Part shown: piece by piece, positions 1 to 45,631 of the stretch
Layout: every line of letters begins with the position of its first letter
Position numbering within the stretch: the stretch's first letter is position 1
NCBI GenBank assembly: GCA_008632985.1
Contig: QPGO01000054.1
Span: forward strand, 405,050 to 450,680
Origin: Psammoneis japonica
Lineage: Eukaryota
DNA length: 45,631 bases
Reading direction: 5' to 3'
Notes under the pieces: model-generated
What the model was told of the DNA's origin: nothing
Databases searched by the model: none
The model's input: only the letters and a program-made list of their open reading frames with translations
Position numbers and translations under genes: made by a program

Positions 1-2874
1 ACTTTGTGCCCTCCAATTTCTGAAGGCTCTGGTCATTGCCACAGATCTTCAACATCTCTTTCTTTCTGCTCATTTCAAGGCACATGGCATCCCCAAGAAG
101 AGGCTCTTTCATTGCTGCTGTGGAGTCAGTCGTCCAATGCCAACTTCTTACACTTCTCTCTTTTGGTGATTTCATTCTTGGCTTTCCCAAAGCTGTGTTG
201 TCATGCTTTGTCCATGCATGGAATGAAAGCATCATTTTAAACAACTGTGTCCAGCAGGACTGTCAAAAACATCATTGCACTTGACCCACAGGTCCTGGAA
301 TTCTTCATCTGAAATCTCAGCAGCTTTGCACAACTTTTGTCAAGATGGTTGGACAACATGACAGCAAACTCCTTCTCTTTGCAACTCCTGTCCTTGCTGT
401 CATTTCAGTTGTCTGCTGAAAATGCATGCATGCACAAGCAAAAAAATTTATGGCCAGCTGCACAAAGTCAGAGTCTTTGGGTCAAACATGAGGAAAATCT
501 GCAGGTTTCTGCACATTTCTGGTGCAAACAAGCACACTTTTCCATTGATGGTGGAGAGCCCACCAAATGCATCACTTGGTGCCACACCTTGTTTGTTGAT
601 GAGTCATTGCTGTTCCTGTGAGTGTTGCAGAGAGCAACTCATTTGTCACACCTCTGCTGCATGTGCACAGCTTTGTGAGGTCAATGCTGTCTTTTGGCAA
701 CCCACAAGACTGGAGAAACAAAGGAGAAAAAAATCAAAATCTCCTGCATTTCCATGGAGGCTTGTCACAATGTCTTGAAGTTCACATTCCATTGGGCAAG
801 ATGCTGCTTTGCAAGTTGTTGCTTTTGGGGCTTGTGTTTGGGCATCATGTGTGCAGTTTGACCACCTTTTTCAATTTAAGTGGGAACAGGTCAGCAGGAC
901 AAATTGAAGAAGAGTTGCCAATCACAGCTGCAAGCAAAGCTCCAAACCAACTTGAGTTTGTCACAGACTTGGCTGGCATTGGTTGAATCTTTTGAGCAAT
1001 GTTTGTTGGCAGCAGCAAAAGTCAGATGTGCCATTTGGCTCACGATGCATGTTGCACATGCACACATTGCTTGGACTGTGCAGTGTCTTTTTCTAATTCT
1101 TGCCCTCCCATGCAGCACCACCTGCAAATGCAAATGGCTTTGAATCATTTGAAAAATTGTCTGAAAAACAATTCTTGCTGTTGGCATTGACATGACTTGT
1201 CCCAAATTGGGCGGCAAACATGAGAACAATTGTTCCCAGTCAAAGGCTCATTTGACAATCACAAGGGCATGTGCAGTCCAAGCACATTTTCCAGTGGCCC
1301 AAACACACTGTTTGGCAGAATGGGAAAGAGATTTTTGGCTCAACACACACCTCCTTGGACCACAATTCAATGGCTTTTGCATTGAAAAGTGCCATGGAAA
1401 GAGTGGAGTTTGATCATCTTGTGAAACTCCAGCTGATTCATTCATGGCAATGACATTGCTTGCATGTTGCGCATTCCTCACTCTGCACATTTGTCCATTT
1501 CTCTTGATGCTCTAACAAGAGAAATCAACTCTTGTCTCACAGCTAAATTCCAACAACCCCAACAGCTCTTGCAATTGATCCCAGGCCAACTTGTGTCACT
1601 CATGTTCAAGAACAGCAACATCAGCTTCATGGTTGTCATGAAACAAAATCATCAAATGCTGTCACTCTGCACTGAGGATTGAGCTGCCCATGATGACACA
1701 CAACAGCTGGAGCTGTTGCAGTGCTTCTTGCACAACAGGGCCTTCACAATTTCACAGCAGAGACCACCCATTTGGTTTCAAGACACTGGTGCTGGTTCAG
1801 GACTGAGTGTCTCATTTTGAAAGTCCAGTTCCAGCAAACACAAGATGAGCTGATGAGCATTGTTTCTTCCAAATGTCCAAGTGGACTTGCATGGTTGTGC
1901 CCTGCTGCATGGCAGACAACTTTCACAATCAGCTCGCAATTGCAGCAACCAGTGCAGGGACAATTTCTGTCATCACAGTGCTTCCTGCAAAACACCATGG
2001 CCAGGTGTCAGGTGGTTGTTCTCTTCCATTGGAGTTGCTTGCAATGGCTTGGATGTGACGTGCATCACCTCAGAGGCATGTTGGAAGTTGCTTTGGTCAG
2101 CTGTCATTGTGCTGCCAAGATTGACTCTTTTGTTGTGTGAGAAAAGCAGGTGCCTCTTTGTTTTTCTCATTTTTGTTTCAAGATTCTGAGTGAGAGGGTC
2201 AACAAAAATTTGTGTGAAGAGACATTGGATTTTTTGGGCGTGTGTCACATGATTTTCAGCTGGTGGCTGAAACAACTCTGCTGGGTGATGGACAAACCAT
2301 GCACAGGGACAAGAGTCCTTAATTCTGTCTGAGACTTGGCATTGACAACAAGGCAGAACATTTGACCAAGATCTCTGCACTGTCTCTCTGGCCAAGACAG
2401 CCACAAAACACCTGCAGTGTCTTCCGAGCCGTTCCCTCATCCCATGAACACATCAAATCAGCTGGAGCCATCCAGCAGATTCCACACCCAATGAGCTGGT
2501 TTTGAGTGTTTTGAAGAGCTCACACTCAAGACAGGATGCATTGACAGGGGTGCAAGTCATTTTTTGACTTTTCCATGATCAACTCATCATTTGCATCTGT
2601 CGTGCCAAGGTCCTTGCACACTGAAGTGATTTGCACATTTCTTGAGTCAACCACACATGTGCACTGGTGCACCATGGGTCATGGGTCTTGTTGGTGGGAC
2701 AGTTGCACTCCCAAAATGGAGATGATTTGCTTGGTTTGCACAGCAAGCTTTGCACTGTCTGACAAAACCATCCTTGCCAAGTCCATGAGAGCAAACAGAG
2801 ATGGCAACAGCACAGTGTCACATTCTTTGCTGCCTTGAAGCTCTGCAAAAACCTGCAAACATTTTGGCTCCCTG

Positions 2875-2915
2875 CTGAATTTGATGGATGCTCCACTGAA
2901 TTTGATGGATGCTCC
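2875..2915 (+). repeat. Short tandem duplication
   Basis: ctgaatttgatggatgctcc occurs at 2875-2894 and 2896-2915. Confidence 0.9.
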
Positions 2916-3932
2916 TCAATGCCATCTTGAGCTCAGCATGACATTTGCAGCTCTGGACTCCCTTCAAGGCACTTTTGCACTGATGGTGCCCAGTTGAGAA
3001 ACTTCCATGGAAGACAACTGAGCTGTTGCAATGCACCACCCAAGCACAAACAAGCTTCTGGCAGGTTGTGCGCTGCAAGTTTCAAGCATGAAAGGGATCC
3101 TGCAATGAGCTTCTTTCAGCAGCATTGCCAGATTTGCATGACCAAAGTCTTCTTGTTGCTGCACATGACAACAGCACACCTGCAACAAAGTTGTCCCACC
3201 TCACACAAAGCCTTGCTTGAGACTCCTGAAAATGTGGCCATCTTGAAACCTGCTGGCATGATGCAACAGAGTGCGCAGATCATGCAGTCATGATGACAGG
3301 TTGTTGTTGCAGACAACACATTGCCTCTGCAAGCATGATGTGTCTGTGTCAGCCAAGATTTGCTGCACATGCAATGGACCACCCCAGGTCACAAGAACAT
3401 TGATGGAACAAAAAATGTTTGTGGTGTTCCGCGCACACACTCCAGGCCAACATGGGGAGCTGTTGTTGGCTCAGGAAGTGCAAAGATGTCCTGGAGATGT
3501 TGGTTGAATGATTGCTGTTGAAGATGGAGAAATTGAGCTGTGGTCACACAAGGCATCACATTTCCAGCCAAGCACATCCCAGAAATGACACTTGCATGGG
3601 AGCACAAATTTTGTTGCAAAGTCTTGGTTGTGCCACAAAGTCTTTGGAGTTTTGGCAGGCACTTTTGTCTTCCTTGGAGGAGATTGTGTGCACATGAAGG
3701 AACTGAGTTTTGGCTCCTTGCTGCAACCACTGCTGCTGCCACTTGCAATGACCTCTGGTTTTGGGGCAGCAAACAAAATGTGTTGGTCATCATTTGGGGG
3801 ATGTTGGAGTGCAGAGTCATGGGACAGCTTCTGAGTGCACTGGAGGGGGGGGACAAGAGCTGTCATCAGGGGATGAAGGATCAAGCACCTCATGCACCAT
3901 GCCCTGCAATGGGTGCTTCTTGATTCATCACT

Positions 3933-3963
3933 TTTGTTGTTGTTGTTGTTGTGGTTGTTGTTG
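3933..3963 (+). repeat. (TTG)n microsatellite, one interruption
   Basis: ttgttgttgttgttgttgtggttgttgttg seen directly. Confidence 0.85.
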
Positions 3964-6060
3964 GACAAGGAAGATGACATGCTTCTGCTGTGGCACAATC
4001 ATTTTCTTTGAGCTCCTTTGGGAATTTGTCTGCCTGTGTCCATCAGGGAGGGTCACTGTGCCATGGGGCTGTGCTGAGACAATGAACTGTGCCATTGCTT
4101 GTGCTGTTGGCATCCTCATGATTTGCTGCAAAGCTGGGCCCACCATCAGAAGAGTGCGAAGGGAATGTGTGCTTTCTAGGAAAATTGTGTGGCCCAGCTT
4201 CAACCCCCAAAGTTTCATTTCAATTGGCAAGAAAGGGCCAATTTTAGAGTGCAAGAAATGTGCATGATGTGTGTGGTTTTGCAAATGGCATCACATGCCA
4301 TTTCTTCAGAAATTCAGAGATCTGAAAGAGACATGCTGAACACAGTGCATGGATGGTCCTGCATGCAAGTGACTGACCCATGCCATTGTGCAGAGAGCAA
4401 ATTCCTGTCTTGCACAAAATCTCATCACAGAGCCAATTTGTTGCACTCACAACACCATGCTGAGTTGATTGAATGATCCTCCTTGACCACACACAGCAGC
4501 CAGCCCACCACACACAATGAGGGTGGAGGAAGACATGACAGGTGAGGTGAGAAACAACAGCAAGCAGACATTTGGTTCAAAGCGCCAACACTCACACACA
4601 GCAAGGTGGGCTTGTGCCTCACGCAGTGGCACAAGCAGGTGGATCCTCCTCAACAGCCACGTGGGATGCAAGTGTTGCCAGCACTGGAGAAGGGAGAGAC
4701 AACAAGTCTGTGACTGACAAATCATGGTGAAAGAAAAAGCAGCACAATGAGAAGAGATGCAGAAGAGAGACAAGGACAACTCTGAGGCACTTGGCAAGAA
4801 CAGTGCATTGTTTGGGAATGCACTGCAAGTTCCTGAACTGCAGTGCACTCAAGATCCACACAGGAGTGGTGACAGTGATGATGACAACAGTGGATGTGCC
4901 AAATGTTTTGCAACACAAATGCAAGCAAATCAGGGAGTGGCCAAAGAACAAGGTGAGCCAGCTGATTGCATGAGGGGACAAAACAATGCTATTGGTGAAC
5001 TTGGTCAAGCAAGAATGCAACCGCAAGTGCAGCCTGGGAAAAAAACTGACACAGTGATTGAAAAACACTCACACATTTTTCTGTTTTATTTTCTGGTGAG
5101 CACAGGCAGAGAGGGCTGTTGCACAAGAAAGAAAAAGCAGCAGATTGCAGAGAGATGCCAGCACTGGAGCAAATGCCAGGAAAAGCCAGGAACAACATGG
5201 GCACATGCTCTTGTTTCACACACTCATTTCTGCCTGTTGTTGTTGGCAAGAACACTTGAAAAAATGATGCATGGTCAACACCTGTGCTTGTTGCTGGTTG
5301 AGCTTTTGCAAAATGGCAAGGAGCGACAGGGTGCTTGCCATGTTGGTGCTGGAAAGCAACTGAAAGAACACAAGTGGAAACTCATGCATTGAAAGTCAAG
5401 GGAAAAGTTCAAGGAGGCTCAAGCAGAAGGCTGAACATCAACGGCTGATCACTGCATTGGAGTGAAAGCAAGAGAAGCAAGCAAGAAGCACCATGAGACG
5501 AGCTGGGCTGCAGCAGCAGGCCAGAAAGGCTCCCAGCACCACAGGTGCAGGCAGATGGACTGGATGAAAGGAGGTGGGCCATTGTGACCAACTGCAATGA
5601 AGTCTGGTTTCAACAGTTCTGCCAGATTGTGGACCACAAAAGGAGCAGCATGTCTGACCTTCTTGTCCAAGGAAGTTTGAGAGGAGAGAGCCAGGAGAGA
5701 GGAGAGGCAGACAAGACGTGGGTCTGCCCCGATGCTGCTGTGCAAAGCTTTCACTGTGGCTTTTTCCGTGGCTGGCTGCCTGCTGTTGTTGACCTGATGG
5801 TAAATTCTTTCTTGTGTGAAAAGATCGTTCTTCCCTTTCTTGCGTCTCACTGCCACTCCAACACTCGCAAGAGCACTGTTGTGTGCGACACAGAGATGGG
5901 TCCTTGCTTTTCTCGCACTGCAAACTGTGGTATCTTATGTATTATTGCACGAATTATTTCAATGTTTGTTTGCCTCAACGGACCATATATATTATTAAAG
6001 TATCGATGACAATATGAAGAAAATAATAATGAAGTCACTACACGTTTGAAAAGTCGGCTC

Positions 6061-6072
6061 TTCCCGCCAAAA
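6061..6072 (+). promoter_or_regulatory. E2F-like site TTCCCGCCAAAA upstream of the Reeler gene
   Basis: Resembles the TTTSSCGC consensus and lies about 140 bp before ATG 6211. The same motif recurs in reverse at 29640-29653. Function is inferred. Confidence 0.3.
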
Positions 6073-6210
6073 AACGACGTCACGCATGCGCGATCTGGAT
6101 CGGAGGTCGGAGTCGGAGGTCAGCATCAGCACAGCATTGTGTGTGTTGTGTTGTTTTTCGTTGTGTTTCGTTGTTGCAGACAAAAGATACCCTCTTATCA
6201 CCTCTTCACC

Positions 6211-7233
6211 ATGGTGTCCTTCCAATGTGCTTCGCTAGCCTTGGCTGCAGCCTTCCTTATGGGAAGAGCAGATGCCTTTCCAACCGGTGCCGGCGGCTGT
6301 GACGCGGGAGATCTTCTTTTGGACTCTGTTGGGGGTGCCGCGCATAGGACCCGTCCCACCACCACGGGGCCTCTTGCGGACGTTGGCTTTCAAGTCGCTC
6401 TCGACGACCAGGCCTTGACGTCTGGTACTCCAGCGAGCTTTGTGGCGGGCATTCCGCATACAGTGACTTTGACGGCCACGTCGGACAAGAGATTTCGTGG
6501 CTTTCTCATTCGTCTTGAAGATGCTGCTGGAGATATTGATACGACCCAGGCATTGTTCACAGAACCTACGCTGGGTGCCCCCCAAGTGCGTATTCTGGGA
6601 CTCTGTATCGAAGGTGAAGAGGTTGGTGGAGTCACCCATACAAACGGGGATGACAAGACGTCCGTCTCGGCGCTCTTGTTTCTCGAGTTTGGAGAGAGCA
6701 ACACCACTACCCCTCTCAGCATGGATGTAACCATGGTGGTTCAGAACAGTGGAACGTCCTCCGAGTGGTACTACTCTCCCTTTACCGTGAATTTGGTTAC
6801 TCCAGACACTGAAAACGATCCTTGTCCCATTTGCGGGGACGGCGAGTTGGCCGAATCGTCCGTCAACAAGACTATCACGTTGCCCAAATTCCCTCCCCTC
6901 ACGACTACACCCACCAATGCGACTTGTGGACAGGTGAACGACTGGGCTCTCGAGGGTGTAGTTGCAGCTCAACTTTGTACGGCCTTTCAGCAAGCCATTT
7001 CTGTGGATTGTCCTTGTGCTGGAGCGGAGCCGGACACCTTGCCTCCCTCCATGGCTCCTGGACCTTCGGAACCACCCACCTCGGAGCCGCCCACAATGAC
7101 GGATCCACCCACGATGACGGATCCGCCCACGTCGGATCCTCCCGCGACGGAAGCTCCCTCTGGCGCGTCTGCAGTCACTGTGCAGGCAGTGATTCTCTCT
7201 GTCGCGGCTTTCGGAGTTGCTCTCTTTGTGTAA
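6211..7233 (+). CDS. Secreted, probably GPI-anchored Reeler-domain cell-surface protein
   Basis: Signal peptide MVSFQCASLALAAAFLMGRADA|FPTGAGGC. Reeler-like motifs FRGFLIRL and GVTHTNGDDKTSVS. Cys-rich module CPICGDG..TCGQV..C..CPC, Pro/Thr repeats (TDPPTM) and a hydrophobic C-terminal tail after PSGASA. Intronless. Confidence 0.75.
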   Translation: MVSFQCASLALAAAFLMGRADAFPTGAGGCDAGDLLLDSVGGAAHRTRPTTTGPLADVGFQVALDDQALTSGTPASFVAGIPHTVTLTATSDKRFRGFLIRLEDAAGDIDTTQALFTEPTLGAPQVRILGLCIEGEEVGGVTHTNGDDKTSVSALLFLEFGESNTTTPLSMDVTMVVQNSGTSSEWYYSPFTVNLVTPDTENDPCPICGDGELAESSVNKTITLPKFPPLTTTPTNATCGQVNDWALEGVVAAQLCTAFQQAISVDCPCAGAEPDTLPPSMAPGPSEPPTSEPPTMTDPPTMTDPPTSDPPATEAPSGASAVTVQAVILSVAAFGVALFV

Positions 7234-32087: not shown

Positions 32088-34260
32088 ATGAATCATCTTT
32101 TACTCTTTCTATGCTTCACAGTGCTTCATTTGTCAAGAGTAAATGCAGAGCAGCAGCATCACGAGCAAACTGAGCAGGATGACCATCTTGTCTTGCAGTC
32201 CAGATTGAAAAAAGCGAAGATGGAACTATGGTCACGCGGAGAGTTTGACATTAATGGATTCGATGGGCACAGTACTCTGGCTGATGCCGTCGTCGAAATG
32301 GAGGATCGTGTAAAGCTTGCTCCTTTAAAATTAGGACCAGTACGGAGAGCGCGAAGAGAGGGTCTCAATGCTTGTCTTGGGGAGCTCGAGTCGAGTGGGG
32401 ATTGGCTAGTAGGTCGGATCATGAAGGTGCGGGGTGGAGAAGATACGACGGCAGACAAAGACTACAATTCCCGTCTTGATGACAAACTGTCGGACTTGGG
32501 AAAGAAATTTGGTGATGATTTTAGACGGGCTATTGAATTGAACAAGAAAGAGCACATTGCTGACTGCGAAGCAAGCTGCGAAAAGTTCTACTGTGCCGAT
32601 CCATCATCCACTACAAAATGGGACAAGGATGCACATAATACAACGTTTGCTTCGTATAGCTTTGGAGCCACTCCACCAGAAGATTTTGCTGAAGAATTTG
32701 GATTTCCGCTAGACTTGATAAAGGTAACTCAAGGCGAGCCGTTGTTTTCTGCGGAGGAGGCAGCCAACGTGGTGGCAACAGCAGAAGGTGAAGGCGTGCA
32801 CTTGAATGAATATCAATCTGGTAAATACAAACTCGGCGGTGACTGGCTTTTGAATCTCCCTAAGACAAGGAAATGGTTCAACCGTCGACTGGAATCCACA
32901 TTCTTTCCGCTTTTGACTTATTTGTTTCCTGAAATTATTTCTTCCACCTCGGTGCTGCGAGCTCATTCCGTAAGTTTACTGAAGTACAACTCATCTCATC
33001 CTAGGACAGATGTCCATATCGATAATGGCATCTTGGCCATGACATTAGCCATGACACCGCAAGATGACTATGTTGGCGGTGGCACCTTCTTTGAGCACAT
33101 GGGAGTCGACAATGTTTTACCCATGGACGTGGGCCACGGCACGTTTCGTCCAGGCAGCGTCCGGCACGGAGGGCACAGAGTCACAAGTGGGACGCGATAC
33201 ATTTTGGGAGCCTTTCTTCTTATTGAAGATCGTGTGGAACACGTGCGGAGGCTAAAGAACCGTGGGAGCGAACTAAGGCGATCTGGAGATTTGGATGGAG
33301 CCGCCAAACACTTTGAATGGGCCCTAGGTATAAATCCCAAATGCACCACCTGTCTCAAGGATTGGGCAGAAATTCTTCTCACCAAAAAAGACTACACTTT
33401 GGCAGAAGAAAAAATAAGAAAGGTGCTGGAGTATCTGGAAGATCGTGACTCGGATGCTCTCTTTACGCTTGGTTTGATCCTGTCCGAACAGGGCCGAGAC
33501 GACGAAAGCATCGAGGCGTACACCAAGAGCGTGGAGTTGAATGCGGAAGATGCGGAGCTGTGTTACAATCTCGGCATCAAGCTAGGAGGTAAAGGCGATA
33601 TACATGGAGAAATGAGCATGTACGCTCGTGCTACGAGCATTGATCCAAACTTTGGTGGGGCTTGGGTGAATTGGGGAACGACTTTGGCGGAGAATGGCAA
33701 TTTAGAAGATGTAAGTATCGATCAGTTACAATTGCTGTGAGCGCCGTTGATCTCACCTCGCGGCCTTGCTCTTGTTCATTCGGCAATCGCTGACAAAGGC
33801 TGAAGTTATGTTCATGAAGGCTATGACAATCCCAGACGTTGCAGCGAAAGCAAAAATAAATCTTGCCCTGGTGTATCAAAGCAAGGCAAACTCCCTAGCC
33901 AGTCAAGGAGATTTACCGGACGCAAAGGAAGCTGTAGGCTTGGCGTCAAAACACTTGGATGAAGCCAAGCCATTATTAGATGCCGCTGCTGTGGCTTCTG
34001 CCATGGGCGAAGCAGACAATGAGAATGCACAGTACGCAGCTCAATTCGACACCCTCCGTCTCCAATGTCATCGACTGACGGGATCCATTCTGGCGGGCAT
34101 GCAAGATTTTGCCGCCTGTGAAGATGAATTCCGAATTGCAACCAAAAAGTATCCTCACGTGCCAGGAGTGTGGGAGATGTTGGCGAGGGTTCTGGACGCA
34201 CAAGGGAAAACACAAGAGGCAGCTATAGCAAGACAGCAAATTGCAGCGCTGGGTCGATAA
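32088..34260 (+). CDS. Secretory prolyl-4-hydroxylase-like 2OG-Fe(II) oxygenase with C-terminal TPR repeats
   Basis: Signal peptide MNHLLLFLCF..VNA, LLKY..DVHID (HxD), YVGGGTFFE, RHGGHRVTSGTRYILGAF, then TPR motifs (ALFTLGLIL, LCYNLG, AWVNWG). Intron 33711-33798. Confidence 0.82.
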
Positions 34261-34400
34261 ATTGCACGTATCAAACACGTGCGAGAATGTAAAATATAAA
34301 GCTACTTGCACTGCTTATAATCAATTAAGTTCGTTCCGCATCTACAATACCTCGATTCGCTCCTACCAAACCTTTTGCACTAAAAGCAGGGGCCTTTTCA

Positions 34401-35378
34401 TTATTTCTTCCGCCTCCCTTTTAACTTTTGTTCCAATTCTCGTTCCCATGGTTCACGAACACATTTGAATAGTTCCATGGTAGCACGTGCATCTTCGGTG
34501 GAATCGTGTGCCTCTCCCGCAACTTGGATATCAAGTTTCAAGTGTTCTTTGACCAAGTCTCGCAGCTTTCGTGGTCTCCACTTGCCACCATTTTTGCCCG
34601 AGGCTCGCTGAAAGGGTCGATATTTAGCAGTGTCTCTAATATTCTGCTTTGGATGGTCCAATAGTAGCGCGTGCAAGTCGTTTTTCAAGGCGTGTCCCAC
34701 CAAAATCTTGCCGCGGAGCAATTCTCCCACGAGTTGACGACACTTGTGCAATTCCATCGCGTCGTTCGAGTGCAAGTGTTTGGCCGTGACACCCGACACG
34801 TGCGTACGAAAATCAGTCACTCGACTGGGGACCTTGACAAAGGTATCTAGAACAGTTTCTCCTTGCCAATCCGTCAGCGATACTCGAGCGAGTGCGGATT
34901 GTTTTCCGTCAGCGCCAATACCCACCATTTCGCAATCCAACGCAAGATACTGCGCCTTCACGTCGTCTGGAATTTTCGATTCTGCTAATTTTCGTGCTTC
35001 TGTCTCTTTCTGCTCCTTTTGAAGCTTTTCTTGCTCTTTTAGCATGTCATTGATTCGTGGAAAGGATCGTTTGGGTCTCTTCTTCTGCGGCGGCCGTGAA
35101 TCCTCTTGATCGCGATTGTCGTTTTCCATCACAAACTCAAGCAGTGATTCGTCTTGACCTTGAGCTCTAGCTTTTCGTCTTGCTTCCTTGCGAAACTTTT
35201 TCTTTTCTTTTGCAGTAAGATCACTTGGAATGACAATTTTGGTGTCGATGCTACCATCATTCGGCCCGTCTCGAGGTTCGTCGTCTGTTCCTCCGGATGT
35301 CTCGCCGGTTGCATGCTTTGCTTTTCGTCGACGTTTACGCATCAGATTCTTTTGCTTTTTTGTCATGAACACAGTCAT
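34401..35378 (-). CDS. REXO4: RNA exonuclease 4 (DEDDh)
   Basis: YLALDCEMVGIG, SALARVS, VTDFRTHVSGV, ILVGHALKNDL, IRDTAKY and HDSTEDARATMELF, with a basic NLS-rich N-terminus. Confidence 0.92.
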   Translation of the reverse strand: MTVFMTKKQKNLMRKRRRKAKHATGETSGGTDDEPRDGPNDGSIDTKIVIPSDLTAKEKKKFRKEARRKARAQGQDESLLEFVMENDNRDQEDSRPPQKKRPKRSFPRINDMLKEQEKLQKEQKETEARKLAESKIPDDVKAQYLALDCEMVGIGADGKQSALARVSLTDWQGETVLDTFVKVPSRVTDFRTHVSGVTAKHLHSNDAMELHKCRQLVGELLRGKILVGHALKNDLHALLLDHPKQNIRDTAKYRPFQRASGKNGGKWRPRKLRDLVKEHLKLDIQVAGEAHDSTEDARATMELFKCVREPWERELEQKLKGRRKK

Positions 35379-35499
35379 GGTAGAGATACTGTAGCTACAG
35401 ATGTAATGAAGATGCTGACTGTTGTCCTTGTGGTTGTTGGTTTGTTTTCAGTGGCAGCGGAATAACACATGTGTTTTTAAAATAGAAGATTAAGGAAGC

Positions 35500-38400
35500 C
35501 TATGTAGAGCGGAAGGTAACAGCAGAGGGAGGGCACGGAGGTAGCTGTAGAGACGGTAGAGTAAAAGGGTCGAAGGACGCAAGACGAAGGGCGTTTTGTG
35601 GAAGGTATGGGTGAGGAGGGGGCAGGGAGAGAGGAGGTGAATCGGAGGATGTGCGTAGAAAGGTGAAGAACAACGTTGTAGCCAAGAGTTTGGGTGGCCC
35701 ACTGGGATGGGGTGGCTGTACGGTAGGTGCTTCCAAAGCGATCGGCGGACAGGCGACGCCATGCGGAGTCAGCAGAGGGAAGGATTGCAGACGGAGACGA
35801 TAAAGCGTAGAGGAAGGCGGAGTAGGAGGCATCGGAGTGACGAAGGTCAGAGGAAGAGGACCAGGGTGGCTTGGGCTGAGAGCAGACGGAGGGGATGTAG
35901 AACCAAAGAGCAAGCGGTGGGCAAAGTAGCCGAGACCACCAAGGTGATCTACAGTGAAGGGGAGCAGGAAGACACCATTGTTGTCAAGCGAAGAAACAAC
36001 AAGGGATCCATCGGTGGAGGAAGCAGAGGGGCCAAGAAACTTCAATCTCGCGCTCGAGTGGTGTGCCTCAGTTAAGATAGGAGAAGAGGGGGCAGGCAGA
36101 CCTGGAGGAGGGCGAGAGGAAGCTTGAGGGACGGTGACGTCCACTGCAATGCAGTGATGGCGGGAGGGAGCGGAAAGGGAGGCGGGAGGGGGGATTGAAA
36201 TGCCGACATCGGCGGGACGGAGAAGCGGGCGGTGGGGAGTAGGTTGGTGGGTTCAAGATGAACATCATTGGGGGATCGACAGAACTCTGCAAGAGGACCC
36301 AAAGTTTGGGCTAGGATGAAAACAGTGTCACGGAGACCATTGGAAAGCTTGGACTTGTGAGCACGGCGGCAAGAAAAGGCATGATCACCATAGGCATCCA
36401 GAATGGCATGGCCACAGGGACAGGGAGTGTTGACAAGGGACGGAGGAAGGATGGGGAGACGAAGCTTACGAAGGGCAGCAACAGCGCAGGCGTCCAAAGA
36501 AAGGTGGGAGCTTGGAAAGCGACGAGAGAAGGAATGAAGAGGGAGGCTTGCAAGCGGAGATGGCAATGAAGGGAGTGAAGATTGCACGTCGTAAGATGAG
36601 TTAGCAAGGATGGAGGTCACTGCTTGTTGCTGATGTTCATGGTAGAGACGACGGGCCAGGCCGGGGAGAGTGGCCGATTTAACCAGGGCAGCCAAGGAAG
36701 AAGAGGAAAGGGCAGAGGCGGAAGCCAGAACGGGAGCACAACGGCGGAAGAGCACATGGAGTCGTAGGGAAGAGCGAGGGTTGGACCAGGAAGACAGGGA
36801 GAGCCGAAAGCAGCGCGGAAGGGAAACAGAAGCGCCAGATGGCAGGCTGACACCGTGTGAAGCAAAGTGGAACGAGCGGAGAAGCGACACCAAGAAGGAA
36901 GGAATGGCGGCAGCTGTTGGGTCCCGGAGACCAAACCCGCCCAAGGAGGCAGGAAGGAAGGCGATGGCAATAGAATGGTCGGGAAAAGGAGCGGCGAAGG
37001 AAGTGACGTAGTGTAGAAAGCGGTGAGCATTGGTGAGGAGGAAATCTTGAAACGGAGAGGTCCAGAGAAAGGGGTCGGGAGGATCATCGGGGTCGAAGTT
37101 GCAGCAAAAGTCAGCTCCAAGGAGGTGAGCAGAGGATGGAACAAAACAGTGCTTGAAGAGTTGAGCCTGGGTTTGTTTATCATGGAGACGGGTGAGAAGC
37201 ACATCAACTTTGTCGGAGAGAGTAGAGGAAGTGTCGGAAAGGAAAGAGGTGGCGAAGTCGTGGGAGCCGAGGGGCTGTCCAAGGAAGCGAACACCAGAGG
37301 TGAGTTCGGGGTTGCAAGAGGGGTCATTGGCAGGGTTTAAAAGGAAAGTGCAGCACGGAGAGAATCGGCGCGGAAGGGAAGAGCAGGGATGGGCTAACAC
37401 CGGAATGGAGGTGAGGATCTTGGTTTTACGGAGGTTGAGGGAGATTCCGCAGGGGGCACCGAGGGCGGAGAAGCGTTCAAGGAACCATGGGAGTGCGGAA
37501 TGGGGAAGGAAAGCGTGAGCATCGTCAATGTAGGAGCCAACTGAGACAGAGGAACGGCCAGGGATACGTTCTTGAAGCTCTTGGTTAATCGGACGAAGAA
37601 CCAGAGAGAGGACCAGGCTGGCGAAAACAGGGCCGAGAGGGCATCCTTGGGCAAATCCCTCTTCTTGAAGAAAGGAGCCCCAGGAAGAATCGGGTCGGCG
37701 ACACCAACATGTTGGAACTTTGACACAGAAGGTCAAAAAAGGAAGCAGAGGATGGAAGGCAGGGGTGGAGGTGAGAACGTGTCGACAGGCATCTCGGGAT
37801 GCTTCGTTGAACATGTTGACGAGGTCAAGAAGAAGAAGAGCCTTGGCAGAGTCGGCAGAAGAGAGACATCGTTCAATGTTGGCAAGAGCAGAGTGAATGA
37901 GATGATCGAGGCCACCTTTGACACCAATGCCAAATTGGCCATCTGGGAGGAGGCATTCGGTAAATGCAGAACCAAAGAGAGTCATGACGACGGAGCCGGC
38001 AATGCGACGAAGAGCAGCACCGACGCCAATGGGGCGAAGCTTGTTGAGGTCGCTGGCATCTTTGTGCAGAGCGACAAAGCAGTTCGAAGCAAATGAGGAA
38101 TGGACGGAGGAAGGAATGGAGCCATGGAGCAGAAGAAGGACAAGCTCACGAAAGGATGACAAGTGGGGGCGTTGAGCAACACCTGTTGGGGTTTTGGTGG
38201 AACAGAGGGCGCAGGACTTGAAAAGGTCGGTAGAATCAGCAAAGACACCGGCAGCAGTCCCAGGCTTACATTTGGAGAGAGCGGAGAGAAGAGCATCGGA
38301 GGAGAGCTCAACAGGCTCATTATGAAGGGAGGAGGCCGAGCGAGTTGAAGGAGGATTGGGCAGGTCGGAGGGGTGCAGGCGAGGAGGGTAGAGCTTGAGG

Positions 38401-39218
38401 ATGGCAGGAAGGCGCTCAGGAGTGACGGCAGCAACAGGAAGCGCAGAGGTGAGCTTGGAGTGGGCCGAGTGAAAGTTGTCTTCGTCGGCGCAGACTTGAG
38501 CGGAGTGGCAATAGGTGGAAGCAGAAAAGTCGGGGGAAGATGGGGAGAGGCGTGGCGCATGGGAGCAGGCTTCGTGGCAGAGTTGGTGAATGCAGCCACG
38601 GCGGAAGAGGGACAAGCGGGAGGCAATGGCGGGCCAAACTTGGAGCGTGGCGGACAGGAGCAAGAATGAGAGCTTCAAAGAGTAAGAGCAGCTTCCAGAA
38701 GGGAGCGAGTCACGTTGCCACGTAGGAATGAGGTGGGAGGGGTCAGAGAGAGGCTGGGAGGCGGCCAGCACCCAGCTTGTCACATGATGAAGAGCAGAGT
38801 AGAGTTCCTTACGGGCGGAGGATGAGAGCTTGCGGCGGCAGGAAGCTCGGAAAGGTGGAGGCTCGAGTGCAAGAGCATGGAGCCATTGTAGCGAGGGGCC
38901 CCAGTCACCTAGATTGTGGAAGGACGAGAGAACAATGTCAGTGTCAAGGGAAGAGCGAGGAGCGAAGTGCTTGTTCTGCAAGTGATTGCGAAGGTGGGTG
39001 GTAGACAGGCAGGTGTGTTGGCCATGATTGCAATGCCTGCAGACATGTAAACCAGCGGCATCGAAGAAGGACGTAGGCACATGAGAAAGCGAGAGGCGGG
39101 GATGCTCCTGGCGAAGATGGCTGCGTGTAGAAGTAGGAAGGGATGATGCATCAATGGAAGGAGGGGACCAGGAGCAGAAGGGGCAAGTTGGCGGGGCACG
39201 GGCTTCGGTGGGTTCCAC
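35500..39218 (-). pseudogene. Retrotransposon pol (ZnF-RT-Zn knuckle-RLE), frameshifted
   Basis: The 1048-aa ORF 36072-39218 plus ORF 35500-36144 carry the motifs above, with several frame breaks. Confidence 0.85.
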
Positions 39219-40864
39219 GAGGCGATGAGATCGCGGAGGGAGTTGACATCAGGGGCTGCAGCCCGGATGGCTTCTTCATAGAAAGGTTGCCAGGTAGAAA
39301 GGCGGGCGGGCAGTAGCACCTGCGAAGGCATCAAGGACATCCAAGAGTTCCATCTCGCGCTGGGACTGCTGGGGAGAAACCGAGTCATCAGATTCGGTCT
39401 GCACAATTGCATCGGGAGCGGTGGGGGGCGGAGAGGTCTGCAAAACTACGGCAGGAATGGCGGGGGGCGGAGAGAGAGCATCGGGAGAAGAGTGGGGACG
39501 TTTGGAGGGAGGAGGCTCGGTGGTGAGGGAGCGGGCTTGGGGAGGATGGGAGGAAGGAGATGCAGCAGCAGGGAGCGGATCTTGGGGCTTGGGGAGCTGC
39601 CAGTCTTGAGCAAGCAGCTCAAGGGCACGACACGAGAAAGAATCTCGAGAGGGAGCGGGCGGCTGAAGAGCAGCAGAGGCGTAGGATGGGGAAGTCATGC
39701 TGTCGTCATGGGTAGATTCCGCCACAGAGGCAAGGAGATCCAAGGGAAAGCCGGGACAGTATGTGGGTTGGCATCCACAAGAGCAATTGTGCACGGAGAC
39801 GGGAAAAAGAGCAGCTTGCACTTGATTGGGAGGGAGTCATGAGCAGAGAAGATGGGGATGAGGGAGCGAAGATTGGTTGCAGCAAGGAGACGACTGATGC
39901 CAGGTTGGGTGAGAGGAAGAAGAAGACGGTCAGAGACAACCACTTTCATGTTGCTCTGACGCGAAATGAGCTCGGAGAGGGCGTTGCAGGTGGGAGCAAA
40001 GTTGGCCGGGGCTGGGAAGGGAATGATGGTGGCAGAGGTCCCCAGGATGGAGAAGGAGGCAGGTGGCGCATTGGATGGATTAGTGACATGAAGTGGGGTG
40101 TTCCAGACGGCATCGGAGGCAGTGGAAATGTAAAAAACCGGAAGAGAGCGGCGTCGCGCCTGGGCCGAGTTAGCGGGGCATTGCGAAGGACGAATTCCAA
40201 CGAGATTGAGAAAGGCAGGACAGTCTCAGAAGGATTGAAGGATGGGATTGGTCGCAGTGCTGGAGATCTTGCCAACAAGGAAGGAATAAAGGCGGGATAG
40301 AAGAAACTCAGAAGTGCATCGAGAAGAACCGCAGAGGGTTGGAGAGGGGCCAGCAAGGACACCATGAGCCTTTTCTTCGAAAGAGTTGCAGGCCGGGATC
40401 ACAAAGGTGCAGTGCCGAGCCCAGGATTGTCCACAGCCGAAACCGGAGAGAAGTCAGGGTGGAGAAAATTGGAAGGGGAGCCAGCGGAGCGGAAGGGGGT
40501 GAAGTGCGATGCAGGGTGCAGATGCCATTTCTGAAGGAGAAAAGAGAGCGCTTGGCTTCGGAAGGATTCGAAGGAAAAGGTGGTGCCGTCGGGGGTCACC
40601 GGGTGAAGAGCAACGTGAAAGCAGGACGCCCACTGATTCTGGTGAGGACAGGAGCGCTTCTTAGTTTCGGCAAGCATCACAGAGCCAAGAGTGAGGAGGA
40701 GCGGAGAGACGCGCCGGCTGTGATGCTCCAGCGTCTTAAGAATGATGTCGCGAATGACATCAGACGTGAGAGCAACAGCAGGCACGTCAGGCAGGTCAGT
40801 AGGATGAAGGACCTGAGCTAAAAGCTTAACATCAGCAGGAGGAGCGGAGGCGAGAGTAGACATG
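39219..40864 (-). pseudogene. Upstream coding region of the retrotransposon (ORF1 or N-terminal part of one long ORF), disrupted
   Basis: Successive minus-strand ORF pieces 40399-40917, 39946-40365 and 39276-39821 starting MSTLASAPPADVKLL. A single base insertion near 39195 would join this region to the zinc-finger region. Confidence 0.55.
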
Positions 40865-41635
40865 ATCAAGCGAGAAGAGGGAGTTGCAGAGAGTCGTTGT
40901 TGTGTGCGAATCGCCAAAAAACAGCGACAAGGTCACAGAACGTGTAGAAAGATAGGAGGAGGGAAGGTGAGGGCATGACGTGGGCAATCGTACACGAATG
41001 ATCGTAGAGGATGCATAGAAACATAGGGAGGAAGGCACAAGCAGAAGCGCGAAGGGAGTCATGGAAGAGAAAGGGGCAGTAGAGAGGGCCGAAGGGTAGG
41101 GGAAGCTGTAGAGGAGTACGGAAGCAATCGTGTTCGAAGGGGCGTAGAAAGGCATGTGGAACGATAGGAGAGGAGTCATAACTAAAGGCGCGAAGGGAGT
41201 CATGGGAGGAAGGGGGGCAATTGAAGGGATTGCTGGAGGAGGAAATGGGGAAGAGGTCAGGGAGCAGAGAGGGGCCATAGGGAAAAGAAACGAACAAGGC
41301 AGAGAGGGAGAGAGGGCATAAGGAAGAGCAGAAAGGGAAATGGCAGGGGGCAGTTGTTGGGATGAAGAAAGGGAGTGAGGAAAAGTGAAAGGGCAATGGA
41401 ATGAGCAGTTGGAAGGGCAATTGGCAATCGTGGAAACTGGGGGCCAGTAGAAGGGGCGTAGAAATGTACAGGCGAAAGGAGCGAAGGGAGTGACCGAAAG
41501 GGAATGAAGAAAGGAGACGATGGCAAAGGCAAGAACGGTAGGGAAAAGGATCCGCAAAAAGAAGGATGGCCATGGCGGAGGGTCGGGAGGCCACTTCGGG
41601 AGGTGTAGCAAAGAGCTACTGCATCCATCATGGGA

Positions 41636-41735
41636 NNNNNNNNNNNNNNNNNNNNNNNNNNNNNNNNNNNNNNNNNNNNNNNNNNNNNNNNNNNNNNNNN
41701 NNNNNNNNNNNNNNNNNNNNNNNNNNNNNNNNNNN
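41636..41735. other. Assembly gap (100 N)
   Basis: Run of N; true length and adjacency across it are unknown. Confidence 0.99.
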
Positions 41736-42325
41736 ATGTAGAGTAGTCACCGTACGTGCCGGTACGCGCAAAGTGCAAGCCCGATGCCCTGCCACAAAGC
41801 AACTGCTGTACAACATGGACCGACTGCTGCATTGCATGGCAGACAGAGGAGCCGCCATGGTTTGATCGATCTGGCAATGCTTTTCTTGTGGCAGAAAAGC
41901 TGCCATCATGACTTGACTTCTGAAGCACTGAAGTGGAGACCGCCACGTGACTGCCCATGGTCCCGTGGTCCCATGGGATGTGCTGGGTGTGGGCGATGTG
42001 TTGTGACATCACATGCGTTGAGTCGGATGTGCTCATGTTCTTGTGAATGTGCACATGTCGTCAAGTAAAAACTCCCATCCCATGGTGCCCACAAATCTGG
42101 AGTTGCCTGGAACCGAACAGCCAAAGACACTTTTTCGGCCATTTCCACACCACGAAAAAAGCACGCGTCAACTCCACTCGACCATGTTGATGTCTCACGA
42201 TTCTTCCCCAATGCCTTTGCAGCAGGACACCATTCTTGCTGACACTGTTGCAAATGACACTGGCACAACAGGCAGCATCATTGCTTCTGTTCTGAACGGC
42301 CTCATGCGTGCAAAACGAGATGCCA

Positions 42326-42612
42326 CCAACTCACGCTGTTGTTTCCTCACCAAACCGCCTCCCACAGACACTGTCACAAATGCCAGTGCTGCACCTGCAT
42401 TGGGGTCCACCGGCATGCCCAATGCTGTTGCTCATGCCATTGCTGTCACCGGCACTGTTGACAACATGTCATTGACTTGTGCCAATGACATCTGCAATTA
42501 AATGACGCCAACTCACACTGTTGTTTCCTCGCCAAACCGCCTCCCACAGATGCTGTCACAAATGCCAATGCTGCACCTGCGTTGGGGTCCATGGGCATGC
42601 CCAATGCTGTTG
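42326..42612 (+). repeat. 105-bp direct repeat pair (42326-42430, 42508-42612), partial third copy near 42700
   Basis: Direct alignment shows six differing sites. Confidence 0.9.
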
Positions 42613-42779
42613 TGCTGTTGATGCTGCCACTTTGTTGTGCCAACAACATCCACAATTGAGTGGTGCCAACAACTGACGCTGCTTTCCATTCTTGCCCCAC
42701 CACCTCCCACAGATGCTGTCAATGCCAACCCTGCACTGCCAGTCAACGCCATCCACAATTCCTGTGTTGGCATCTCTGT

Positions 42780-43760
42780 TGATGTCTTTGGCAAGCACCC
42801 TCATGCTTGGCAGCAAAACATGGGGTGCAGCATCCTTGCATCAATGCAGAACCAAAACATCCATCCTTTCTTGCTTGTCTGACCCACTGGTGGTGGCAAA
42901 TCCCTTGTTCGTGACATTGTGGGGGTTTGTCTTCAAGGCATCATCCTTGCTGTCATCCCTCTGTTGTCCCTTGGTTTGGATCAGTGCCGCAAAACAATGC
43001 AATGAGCCAAACAAGGCCAGCAACACATGGACCTGTCTCAGCCTTTCATTTGGATGAGATTTCAAAGAATCCAACTCACATGCAAAGGTTCTTTGACTGG
43101 ATGTGGCAGCTTTCACCTTCAGTGCATGGCACGGTTTTCCTGTTTTGCTTGCCTCAGTTGACAGTTGCCAATGATGTGCTGCTGCAGCTCCTTCTTGGCA
43201 TTTTGCACAATGGTTTGCTTCGGATGATTGCCTTGGACACAAAATTCATCTTTTTGTGCCTGTCATTTTGGTCCAAATTCCAGGGCCTCCGTGATTGCTT
43301 TCTTTTGTGGGTGCACTCAATGCATTCCATTCCCTTGCTTCTCATGACAGCAACATGCAACACACCCAATTGTCTTGTCCACAGAGAATTTGATTGGGAG
43401 AAACATTGACCACTGCCATTGGCCATCACCTGATGACATGAGGCATCATCATGTGTCATTCTTGGTGACATTTGTGGTGATTGCCCATTCACAATTGTCT
43501 CCAACATGCTCTCTGCCTTGCTTGCAGCTGGTTCTGATGCAGACAAGTGCATTTTCTGCTCAAACCACTGAACCAAAATTGAGACGTTTCAGGCAAACTT
43601 GTCAACATGGTTGGATTGGAGCGACGCTTTCCATTTGTTTGACATTGTCTCTCTTGTTGGGACACTAACCAAGGAACAAAAGGCACATCACATTGCCGCC
43701 TTTGTTGATTCTCTCCATGCCAATTTGCCATTCCAGCCTTGCTTTCTCTGTGCTGCCAAT
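42780..43760 (+). pseudogene. Decayed RecQ-like SF2 helicase
   Basis: Q-motif VFGKHPHAWQ, LLV*PTGGGKS (42871-42903), GIILAVIPLLSLGLDQ, FLFCLPQ, LRMIALD/xIHLFV, SFWSKF, PLLLMTAT and LVGTLTKEQKAHHIAAF occur in the correct order. Confidence 0.75.
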
Positions 43761-43799
43761 GCTTTTGACAGTCTTCCGACAGGACCACGTCTTGCACAG

Positions 43800-45320
43800 A
43801 TTCTCCCGAGACACCTTGTTGTGTGCCAACACAGCTTTGACAATGTCAAACAGCTGAAGCAGACCAAGCATGACCTTGCCGGCACCTTTGCTTGTCGTCT
43901 CATCCTCACAGGAAACTGGAGGAATTAAGATGGACACATGTGGAGGTGTGCCACACCAAACCTGTGTTTCACGTGTCATTGGAAGAAATTGCAGGAGTGG
44001 CAGAATCCCTTTGCCGCTCAGTTGGGTGTGAGCTTTTGTTGGACCTGCATCTGATCAATGGATTCTACACCAGAGGTGGGCTGAAAAGAAAAAGCAGCGC
44101 CAACCCAAGGAACACAGTTTCGGTGCATGTGTGCCACAGTTGCAAGAGACACAATTGATGCATGCCGGGCTGCACGGGTGCCAGTTGAATCTGCAGCTTC
44201 CAGAAATGCATTGGAGGTTTGGAAGGCTGCAATCAATGCATCAGCACAAAGCAAAGCAGGGTTGGACTCACATGTGGGCATGCCGCATGGCAAAGGAATG
44301 CATTGGTTGACATGAGTGATGGAGTCAGGTGGAGAGATCACCATTGGACAAGATGCAAAGTTGGGCAAGGGGCTGGACATGCGGCTTGATGAACATTCAA
44401 GAGGTGGTCTTGGCGACATTGGAGGACTGGCGGTTGCACTGAAACTCAAGCAATTCCACCACCTCAAGAAGCATGAGAAATCAATGGACAGTTGGTGCCA
44501 TGAATGCAGAAACAAAACATGTGGAATGGCATGACAATGGGGCAAAGATGCACCTGAGAATTGTCAAATGTGGGTGCGCCAAAGGTTTCAGAAGCAATCA
44601 AGGACTTGTTTGCATTGTCCATGACAGTTGCACAGTTGGCAAACAAACGTGTCTTCTGCAATGGCGTTTGTTGTGTTGCCGCTTGTCCAAAACACACAGA
44701 AAGCTTTGATCTCGATGTCAAGCCCAATGATCCACACATGGCAGCAGTGTTGCGGCAGGACCATCATGCAAAAGAATGAGAATTTTGGATGTGCATGATG
44801 GACATGAAAACATGCAAAACAAACCAATCCCAAATGGGAAGGAGCTGTTGTTTGGTGGAAAGGTTTTTCTTTGCCTCGCAGCTCAACAAAGTGCTCAATG
44901 CAATGCAGTGGAATGGCATTGTTTTGCAAAACTGCCAAGTGATTGCCACAACAGCAGCCTGATCAAGAATTGGGGAGGTCAAAGCCATGAACCATCCAAA
45001 ACAGGAACAAATGGCAGTCTTGCATGAGCCCCTGACAAATGAAACAAAGTCATTTAACGTGGTGTTGCTTGTGCCAATGTCAAACAACTGCCGAGTCCAA
45101 TCTGCAGAAATGCCACCTTGTTTGCAATGGGCCAGCTGAGCACCCAGTTTGCTGTCCTTTAAAAGTGGGTCACACTCATTGTGGCAAAGGACATGAACAG
45201 CACGGCCATTGCCCCGCAGTTCCTGCACACACCGATTGAGCATTGCAGCATGATGGTTTGTGTTTTTCACTTTTCCCAGCAGCAAACGCATGTGGTTGTT
45301 GTGCGGGAGAGTGCAGCCCA
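43800..45320 (-). pseudogene. Decayed coding relic, possibly DUF6589-like
   Basis: Protein-like fragments TFDNSQ and IPPVSCEDETTSKGAGKVMLGLLQLFDIV. Family resemblance is from memory only. Confidence 0.3.
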
Positions 45321-45631
45321 CATGTGCAACGTTGCACAGGAGTGGAACATGTCACAGTGCTTGACCTCAAAAGACACAGATGCACTGCCCACCGGTGCAA
45401 CAACGACAGCACCACCGCCTTGGCGAGTGCAAAGGTGCTCCAGTTCTGTTGCAGTTGAGTCTTTTTCTTGCAGTTTCTTTTGGTGGGCCTGGCTGGAAAT
45501 GGTTGCTTCAATGATGAAGAAGAATTCCTTGCCAGTGCAAACAGCAATGGAGGGAGAGCCAGCACACATGGCAGTGAGCACGGGCTTCCACGTCAGTGCA
45601 AAAGTGTCATGGGAAGAAGAAATCAAAAGAA

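Follow-up and report, generated by a model that had tools for sequence, protein, structure and literature searches.

TpA depletion and replacement of tyrosine codons in a LINE-like retrotransposon family of Psammoneis japonica

The contig QPGO01000054.1 of Psammoneis japonica (GenBank assembly GCA_008632985.1) carries a retrotransposon resembling the long interspersed nuclear elements (LINEs) in the region analysed here (positions 405,050 to 450,680; 45,631 nt, called the window in the following). An initial annotation of its main open reading frame (ORF), which encodes a reverse transcriptase (RT), had noted cysteine or histidine at many positions where tyrosine would be expected, and had explained this by a conversion of TpA (TA) to TpG or CpA that strikes young transposable elements before CpG decay. 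The locus thus raises the question whether tyrosine codons were destroyed by a process directed at TA and, if so, whether this happened in the present copy or earlier in the history of the family. The reading that we prefer, with a probability of about 0.68, is that the window holds a defective, recent copy of a LINE-like lineage residing in a genome that runs a TpA to TpG/CpA process on repeated or foreign DNA. All coordinates are positions of the window; the sense strand of the element is the minus strand.

Replacement of tyrosine by cysteine and histidine

The protein encoded by the main ORF was aligned with 17 homologs of 33–45% identity, and those columns were considered in which tyrosine is the commonest residue among at least five homologs (Tyr-plurality columns). 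At the 20 columns of this kind the window has Cys seven times, His twice, Phe five times, Tyr four times and Val and Leu once each. Among the 17 homologs, Tyr is replaced by Cys in 1 of 229 cells of the same columns and by His in 12 of 229 (Fisher's test of window versus homologs, p = 5e-8 for Cys and p = 5e-6 for Cys plus His). The protein as a whole contains 0.9% Tyr versus 1.6–3.7% in nine homologs, and 3.8% Cys versus 1.2–2.3%. That Cys and His stand repeatedly where Tyr is expected was therefore confirmed. Closer relatives from metagenome contigs give the same picture, as at position 362, where Tyr is present in 10 of the 11 that can be compared.

At the level of single positions the agreement was less complete. 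Ten of the 11 sequence strings cited in support are literally present; FDLLC is absent, and LTFC is found there. The retention of some tyrosines, as in YIDD, was seen as described. Nine of the 17 residues flagged as former tyrosines (C224, C346, H362, C390, C461, C516, H583, C715, and C716; Table 1) fall into Tyr-plurality columns, and at C349 Tyr is the second commonest residue (4 of 11 homologs). The ancestral Tyr assignment found no support at the remaining seven (H225, C228, C432, C514, H578, C813, and C837), at which the homologs do not favour Tyr; C514 is a conserved cysteine (12 of 15 homologs).

TpA content and sequence context of the changes

The ORF (3177 nt) contains 39 TA, corresponding to an observed/expected ratio (o/e) of 0.29, and 166 CG (o/e 0.78). 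CG is thus only slightly low, but it is not fully intact in this copy, which has nine CpG to TG/CA differences of its own (see below). In the stretch 37636–38135 one TA is found versus 24.9 expected. In the RT core, TA o/e is 0.17 versus 0.40–0.61 in nine relatives at 40–45% identity, with 0.3% Tyr versus 1.6–4.4% and 4.4% Cys versus 1.6–2.6% in these relatives. Counted by codon phase, the RT core of the window has 9 TA and 19 TGN codons, compared with 20–34 TA and 8–10 TGN in eight relatives of the same composition; CAN codons are not raised (25 versus 21–38).

From the consensus residue and the window codon, 95 unambiguous single-base coding changes were deduced. The largest class is A>G with 18 changes, and in 13 of these 18 the A is preceded by T; T>C before A occurs three times. 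A>G after T (13 of 95) being the biggest class of coding changes is in line with the conversion originally postulated.

We considered whether these observations could be explained with no special mutation at all. The element could be poor in A and TA by composition or by selection (UA avoidance in RNA, or a TA-directed host factor), the Cys and His residues then being ordinary divergence. The nine relatives at 40–45% identity are indeed also pyrimidine-rich on the sense strand (0.64–0.69) and share a TA o/e below unity. Adenine was moreover lost in all directions, with about 44 A-losing versus 17 A-gaining changes in the window lineage; the homologs tend to gain A. The Cys/His codons are also shared among copies of the element. 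On the other hand, the relatives of equal composition keep their tyrosine and have far less cysteine, as given above, and composition does not account for seven Tyr>Cys replacements in 20 columns versus one in 229 cells, nor for the preceding T in 13 of 18 A>G changes. Furthermore, TA loss is enriched among the differences between copies, and adjoining stretches with no detectable coding domain are TA-free as well. We regard this explanation as quite unlikely.

The pyrimidine-rich strand itself (69% over the whole element: A 14, C 40, G 17, T 29%) is not a product of the conversion, since transitions leave the purine content unchanged and the nine relatives share the bias; transitions were accordingly rejected as its source. 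A sense strand of 64–69% pyrimidine was observed in the element and in the metagenome loci L002–L005, L008, L010, L011, L015, and L016 (see below), compared with 44–59% in the wider family.

Regional extent of the depletion

The depletion of TA is graded along the window. The host genes (6001–35000) have a TA o/e of 0.53 and a CG o/e of 0.98, the element has a TA o/e of 0.23–0.33 per kb, and two blocks, from 1 to about 5500 and from 42000 to 45631, are nearly devoid of TA (0–4 per kb, o/e 0–0.05 in per-kb profiles). TG (o/e 1.7–2.3) and CA (o/e 1.7–2.1) are raised on both strands of these blocks, which are known from the assembly alone. With the host genes spared and the two flanking blocks fully converted, the process is regional, which is in keeping with the proposed targeting of transposable elements.

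CG o/e is 0.02–0.09 in the first block and 0.24–0.40 in the second, where the loss of TA is full and that of CG partial. A search with Pfam gave no match for 21 frames in 362–6009 and none at the curated cut-off for 15 frames in 42022–45630 (best E-value 0.017). Sequence comparison and tblastn with the homologs revealed no relationship of the blocks to each other or to the element. Inside the second block, between 42320 and 42736, there are two or more copies of a repeat of about 180 nt (74% identity).

Comparison with other copies of the element

The contigs of one public DNA sample were placed on 34000–41630, yielding 1149 pieces, of which 330 are at least 99% identical to the window, 345 are 95–99%, 289 are 90–95%, and 185 are less than 90% identical. 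The summed contig depth in run X1, which does not equal copy number, is 3800–6600 over 35530–37314, 1570–3140 over 37315–39099, and 400–2050 beyond, with 400–800 near the 5' end of the element and 59–62 on the flanking genes. Because of the number of pieces and the fall in depth from 3' to 5', the element belongs to a high-copy, 5'-truncated, LINE-like (non-LTR, i.e., lacking long terminal repeats) retrotransposon family.

The comparison of copies was based on the 40 best-supported of 320 variable places and on 12 of 27 insertions or deletions, and the alternative base at each of these places makes up 0.89 or more in one run; the places outside the 40 presumably have lower shares. Among the 40, the window differs from nearly all other copies at 32 places in the element, or about 0.5%. 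The window copy therefore departs little from the family majority and is probably young. If the majority is read as ancestral, the 32 places comprise nine CpG to TG/CA, four TA to TG/CA, and four TG/CA to TA changes, three adjacent CA/TG double differences (six places), eight other transitions, and one transversion.

Of the 25 single-site transitions, four are TA losses, a 5-fold excess over the 3.2% expected under a model of random transitions (p = 0.008), and nine are CpG losses, for which the model gives about 10–13% (p = 0.003 at 13%). The gain of TA (4 of 25 versus 13% expected) shows no significant excess. Expressed per site, about 2.0% of TA, 1.4% of CpG, and 0.15% of other sites have changed, so that TA and CpG sites are both roughly ten times more mutable than other sites; for TA the factor is about 13 relative to non-TA, non-CG sites. 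TA sites thus do mutate above other sites, as had been predicted. The further expectation that TA to TG/CA would far exceed CG to TG/CA was not borne out, with four versus nine changes and per-site values of 2.0% versus 1.4%.

The nine CpG to TG/CA changes indicate that CpG decay is already under way in this copy; three of the window's histidines (221, 794, and 915) stem from CGC>CAC. None of the nine Cys/His codons at Tyr-plurality columns appears among the 40 best-supported copy differences, a result with which a TAY share below about 89% of the copies would still be compatible. As these codons lie outside the near-unanimous differences, the Cys/His state is not private to the window copy: the changes arose in the source lineage of the family and not by private decay of a fresh insert.

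One further codon was informative. At codon 953 the window and nearly all other copies disagree (Table 1), TGT being carried by 1558.7 of 1697.5 depth at place 36391 in seven contigs. A Tyr>Cys change would on this account still be segregating within the family, the alternative being a back-mutation in the window.

These data also bear on a technical explanation, according to which modified bases in silenced DNA were miscalled, so that TA and CG were written as TG/CA. Run X1 may be the window's own assembly data, and the read-level comparison covers only the element, the two converted blocks being known from the assembly. Against a miscall, the X1 contigs match the window at all but about 0.5–1% of the element, and the nine Cys/His codons are outside the 40 best-supported differences. 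In addition, two metagenome loci from other data sets (L013 and L060, see below) show the same signature, and the comparable mutations reported for Bigelowiella natans were, according to the preprint describing them (see below), called from Illumina reads. An artefact of this kind is extremely improbable.

Related elements in metagenomes

With a 6-sequence alignment we found 80 metagenome loci encoding relatives of the element. In two of them TA is strongly depleted, with o/e values of 0.11 (L013:1-3946) and 0.21 (L060:1-1100), and CG o/e is 1.0 in both. L013 can be compared with a further locus, L009, with which it shares 75% identity over 3533 nt. At the 145 TA of L009, L013 has CA in 56 cases, TG in 49, and TA in six; accordingly, 105 of 145 were lost to CA or TG. 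The numbers of CpG in the same alignment are nearly equal (202 in L013 versus 203 in L009). The longest open stretch of L013 (706 aa) contains no Tyr, 24 Cys, and 30 His; in L009 two stretches of about 1265 aa are open, each in a frame of its own, and they contain 44 and 46 Tyr.

The comparison of L013 with L009 shows that a TA-specific process that affects both strands and is independent of CpG decay acts on the same retrotransposon family elsewhere. The proposed independence from 5-methylcytosine deamination is supported by L013 and L060, which lost TA with a CG o/e of 1.0.

At positions 362, 516, and 583, three other loci with a TA o/e of about 0.5 (L002, L008, and L015) have His, and Tyr or Phe is found in other relatives. 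The same process may have left this weaker mark in a different host.

A TpA-directed process as the most probable explanation

The same phenomenon has been described before in one alga, Bigelowiella natans. According to the main text of a preprint (Mettrop et al., bioRxiv 10.64898/2026.01.13.699255), mutation-accumulation lines of this alga acquired 302 new nuclear mutations, of which 231 lay in two integrated viral regions. A>G or T>C made up 230 of these 231, and every one of the 230 was on TpA. In the viral regions the rate was about 6e-7 per site per generation; a rate of approximately 1000 times the background, in bursts, is characteristic of this type of hypermutation. The same text describes 124 TA-poor, TG/CA-rich clusters and an enrichment of reverse transcriptase and DDE domains among TpA-depleted coding sequences, and proposes an ADAT2-like adenine deaminase as the cause; the word CpG occurs nowhere in it. 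Our literature search yielded no report of a TpA to TpG/CpA process beyond this preprint, whose supplements were outside the search and may list affected genes.

We propose that a TA-specific process took about two thirds of the TA expected for the clade in the RT core, by which at least nine consensus Tyr codons (TAY) would have become Cys (TGY) or His (CAY). Most of the changes would have been present already in the source element when the window copy was made, and TA changes and ordinary CpG decay would both go on among the copies. The likeliest chemistry would be the one proposed for B. natans, in which an adenine after T is deaminated and then taken for G when the DNA is next replicated. 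The older changes, with their bias to the sense strand, suggest that transcribed source copies are attacked on their exposed non-template strand or at the level of RNA; in silent DNA both strands appear to be hit. The polarity of the differences between copies, and the connection with the process in Bigelowiella, are what we infer from these patterns. The idea of the initial annotation is supported in part: the conversion is real, specific for TA, regional, and separable from CpG decay, and it belongs to the history of the family and not to that of the window copy.

Several points weigh against this reading. The copy-level counts comprise 32 places with four TA-loss events, taken from the 40 best-supported of 320. 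Their polarity is assumed from the majority, and the four TG/CA to TA places could be new TA in the window, for which 13% is expected by chance; the three CA/TG double differences could derive from CG no less than from TA in the ancestor. The last 160 nt of the element (35476–35635) are not depleted of TA (11 versus 7.9 expected) and the depletion in 40636–41635 is mild (28 versus 43 expected), a retention at the element ends that may reflect selection on cis-acting sequences. The identity with the Bigelowiella process is argued from the signature only. Finally, the older coding changes are sense-biased, with 13 TA>TG versus 3 TA>CA, a bias not expected of a simple process on both strands of DNA.

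This last point leads to a second candidate, RNA editing. An ADAR-like or ADAT-like enzyme could deaminate A after U in the transcript, and reverse transcription would fix TA>TG in each new copy, so that the element would be eroded in the course of its own copying and not by an attack on resident DNA. Such a mechanism would account for the sense bias of the older, shared changes (13 T[A>G] versus 3 [T>C]A), for the ratio of Tyr>Cys to Tyr>His of 7:2 although His is the milder replacement, for the increase of TGN codons in the RT core (19 versus 8–10 in relatives) with no increase of CAN (25 versus 21–38), and for the inheritance of the changes by most copies. However, the window-specific TA losses run the other way on the sense strand (three T>C versus one A>G), TG and CA are equally raised in the TA-free blocks, and L013 has 56 CA versus 49 TG. 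Sense TG also exceeds CA in relatives that retain TA, and the Bigelowiella mutations occur, according to the preprint, in a transcriptionally silent single-copy insert. We consider RNA editing an unlikely source of the pattern.

It is also conceivable that the process is the same TA-specific one on DNA with a different chemistry. A modified thymine, of the hydroxymethyluracil type, at TpA in silenced DNA could mispair with G and give T>C on either strand. Thymine modification is enriched at TpA in some protists, and the outcome, TA>CA/TG on both strands, would be identical by sequence. Nothing in the sequence favours thymine over adenine as the damaged base, though, and the sense A>G bias of the older changes fits a deamination of the non-template strand more simply. 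We give this chemistry little chance.

Comparison with known systems

Our preferred reading, a TpA to TpG/CpA process acting on repeated or foreign DNA, is closest to the hypermutation of B. natans as the preprint describes it. Both show TA>TG/CA transitions that are confined to regions and spare host genes, both have TA-poor, TG/CA-rich clusters of several kb, and RT domains are among the TpA-depleted coding sequences. The window differs in that the target is a high-copy LINE-like family at an intermediate stage, in which the changes are mostly inherited and sense-biased, and in that CpG decay goes on alongside, strongly so in the blocks (CG o/e 0.02–0.40).

Fungal repeat-induced point mutation (RIP) likewise disables repeated DNA by transitions in a dinucleotide context. 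In RIP, however, CpA is converted to TpA, which enriches TA and makes stop codons, whereas TA is depleted and CA/TG are enriched in the window. As no enrichment of TpA was found, RIP was ruled out. The destruction of TA creates no in-frame stop, and the frames therefore stay open.

ADAR hyperediting and APOBEC are comparable as deamination directed against mobile or viral nucleic acid, and ADAR prefers U before the edited A (cited in the Discussion of 10.64898/2026.01.13.699255). Unlike the case described here, in which silent DNA is marked on both strands, these enzymes act on RNA or single-stranded cDNA and mark one strand. Deamination of 5-methylcytosine at CpG also yields TG/CA and is active in the window copy, as its nine CpG to TG/CA changes indicate, but it cannot remove TA, and L013 and L060 lose TA with a CG o/e of 1.0.

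It is possible, if rather doubtful, that TA-directed editing extends beyond one chlorarachniophyte and its viral inserts, being a defence more widespread among protists and directed at LINE-like retrotransposons as well. A clade of LINEs would in that case be evolving under this defence, its amplifying source lineage shedding TA and with it conserved tyrosines, mainly on the sense strand. The enzyme would attack transcribed copies at their exposed strand or as RNA, and the loss of the target dinucleotide would be the element's escape.

A process that destroys TA erases tyrosine and leaves long, intact-looking frames, and can in this way mislead annotation and the dating of transposable elements. 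Three stages are found next to each other in the window: host genes that were spared, a LINE family that looks active and is converted in part, and blocks in which conversion is complete. CpG decay can also be seen here beside the TA process, a combination not discussed in the main text of the Bigelowiella preprint. Together with the two TA-depleted metagenome relatives, the window suggests that the process reaches retrotransposons, probably in more than one host. The element family is a place where rate, strand, and target choice of the process could be measured.

Structure and defects of the element

The features of the element are collected in Table 1. The 3' boundary was set at 35474–35478, as contigs of run X2 depart from the window at 35474–35477. 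The 3' tail consists of five A alone; the 5' end lies in the N gap, and a target-site duplication is beyond view. A self-comparison of 35476–41635 for long terminal repeats gave one 96-nt pair only (74% identity). No second copy of the element was found within the window by tblastn with 19 homologs, and the homolog search returned no close protein copies (best identity 41% for long and 45% for short proteins).

Table 1. Positions of the element, its coding features, and the codons discussed in the text.
Feature	Position	Strand	Remarks
Visible repeated element	35476..41635	-	Pyrimidine-rich stretch, contig depth (run X1), and contig divergence (run X2)
N gap (100 N)	41636..41735		Swallows the 5' end of the element
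Short A run, 3' end of element	35474..35478	-	Five A; repeat boundary
Main open frame, 1058 aa	36072..39248	-	Stop-free; zinc-finger-like N-terminus, reverse transcriptase, CCHC motif
Two C-x2-C...H-x3/4-H patterns, residues 22-94	38967..39185	-	From translation; aligned with the same pattern in P0002, P0007, P0008
Reverse transcriptase domain, ORF residues 401-657	37278..38048	-	Pfam RVT_1, E 1.2e-10
CCHC motif (C943, C945, H956, C960)	36369..36422	-	Columns invariant in alignment A1
C-terminal domain of homologs (RPADV...D.T...LLPFTVD...)	35555..36219	-	Split over two further frames here; alignment and tblastn
First frameshift, homology frame -3 to -2	36219..36237	-	Just before the RPADVG stretch; tblastn of 9 long homologs, three-frame view
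Second frameshift, frame -2 to -1	35875..35890	-	tblastn of 9 long homologs
Two in-frame TGA codons (39249-51, 39276-78)	39249..39278	-	Divide main frame from upstream stretch
In-frame upstream open stretch	39279..39836	-	Contains Met
C224	38577..38579	-	TGC; homolog Tyr 6/8
C346	38211..38213	-	TGC; homolog Tyr 6/11
H362	38163..38165	-	CAC; homolog Tyr 8/10; metagenome relatives Tyr 10/11
C390	38079..38081	-	TGC; homolog Tyr 7/11
C461	37866..37868	-	TGT; homolog Tyr 7/16
C516	37701..37703	-	TGT; homolog Tyr 9/15
H583	37500..37502	-	CAT; homolog Tyr 6/14
C715 and C716	37101..37106	-	TGC TGC; homolog Tyr 4/10 at each
Codon 953	36390..36392	-	Window TAT (Tyr); nearly all other copies TGT (Cys); homolog consensus Tyr, 5/9

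A frame of 1058 open codons has a chance of about 2e-7, stop trinucleotides making up 0.0146 of the sense strand. The copy in the window is nevertheless defective and not intact, as it carries two frameshifts and two upstream in-frame TGA codons. Nine long homologs extend about 250 residues past the end of the ORF, and the window follows them only through the two frameshifts. Behind 35890 one X1 contig has an extra G (depth 707.7 of 3132.4). In the main frame the first Met does not occur before residue 422. Pfam gave no match at the curated cut-off for five frames upstream of the main ORF.

All seven PDB profile matches obtained with the ORF protein and nine homologs are to non-LTR elements (five to LINE-1 ORF2p and two to R2). 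The order of the domains is N-terminal Cys/His patterns, RT, invariant CCHC columns, and nearly invariant RPAD...D.T columns (alignment A1), and the Pfam scan of the ORF gave no match to an apurinic/apyrimidinic (AP) endonuclease. This suggests that the element probably belongs to the restriction-like-endonuclease type of non-LTR elements. We take the N-terminal patterns to be zinc-finger-like, putatively of the C2H2 type. The RPAD...D.T stretch is presumably a nuclease motif of the PD-(D/E)xK type, an assignment of ours that no profile confirmed; Pfam gave no match at the curated cut-off for the C-terminal domain.

The element resembles the R2-like elements, which have a C-terminal restriction-like endonuclease, in its single large frame with N-terminal Cys/His patterns, in the succession of RT, CCHC, and RPAD...D.T, in the lack of a match to an N-terminal AP-endonuclease, and in the presence of R2 among the PDB matches. 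It differs from them in that LINE-1 ORF2p scores slightly above R2 in the RT core of the window.

The 3' end of the element lies upstream of a gene resembling RNA exonuclease 4 (34401–35447, minus strand) of the same orientation, at a distance of about 95 nt from its first ATG.

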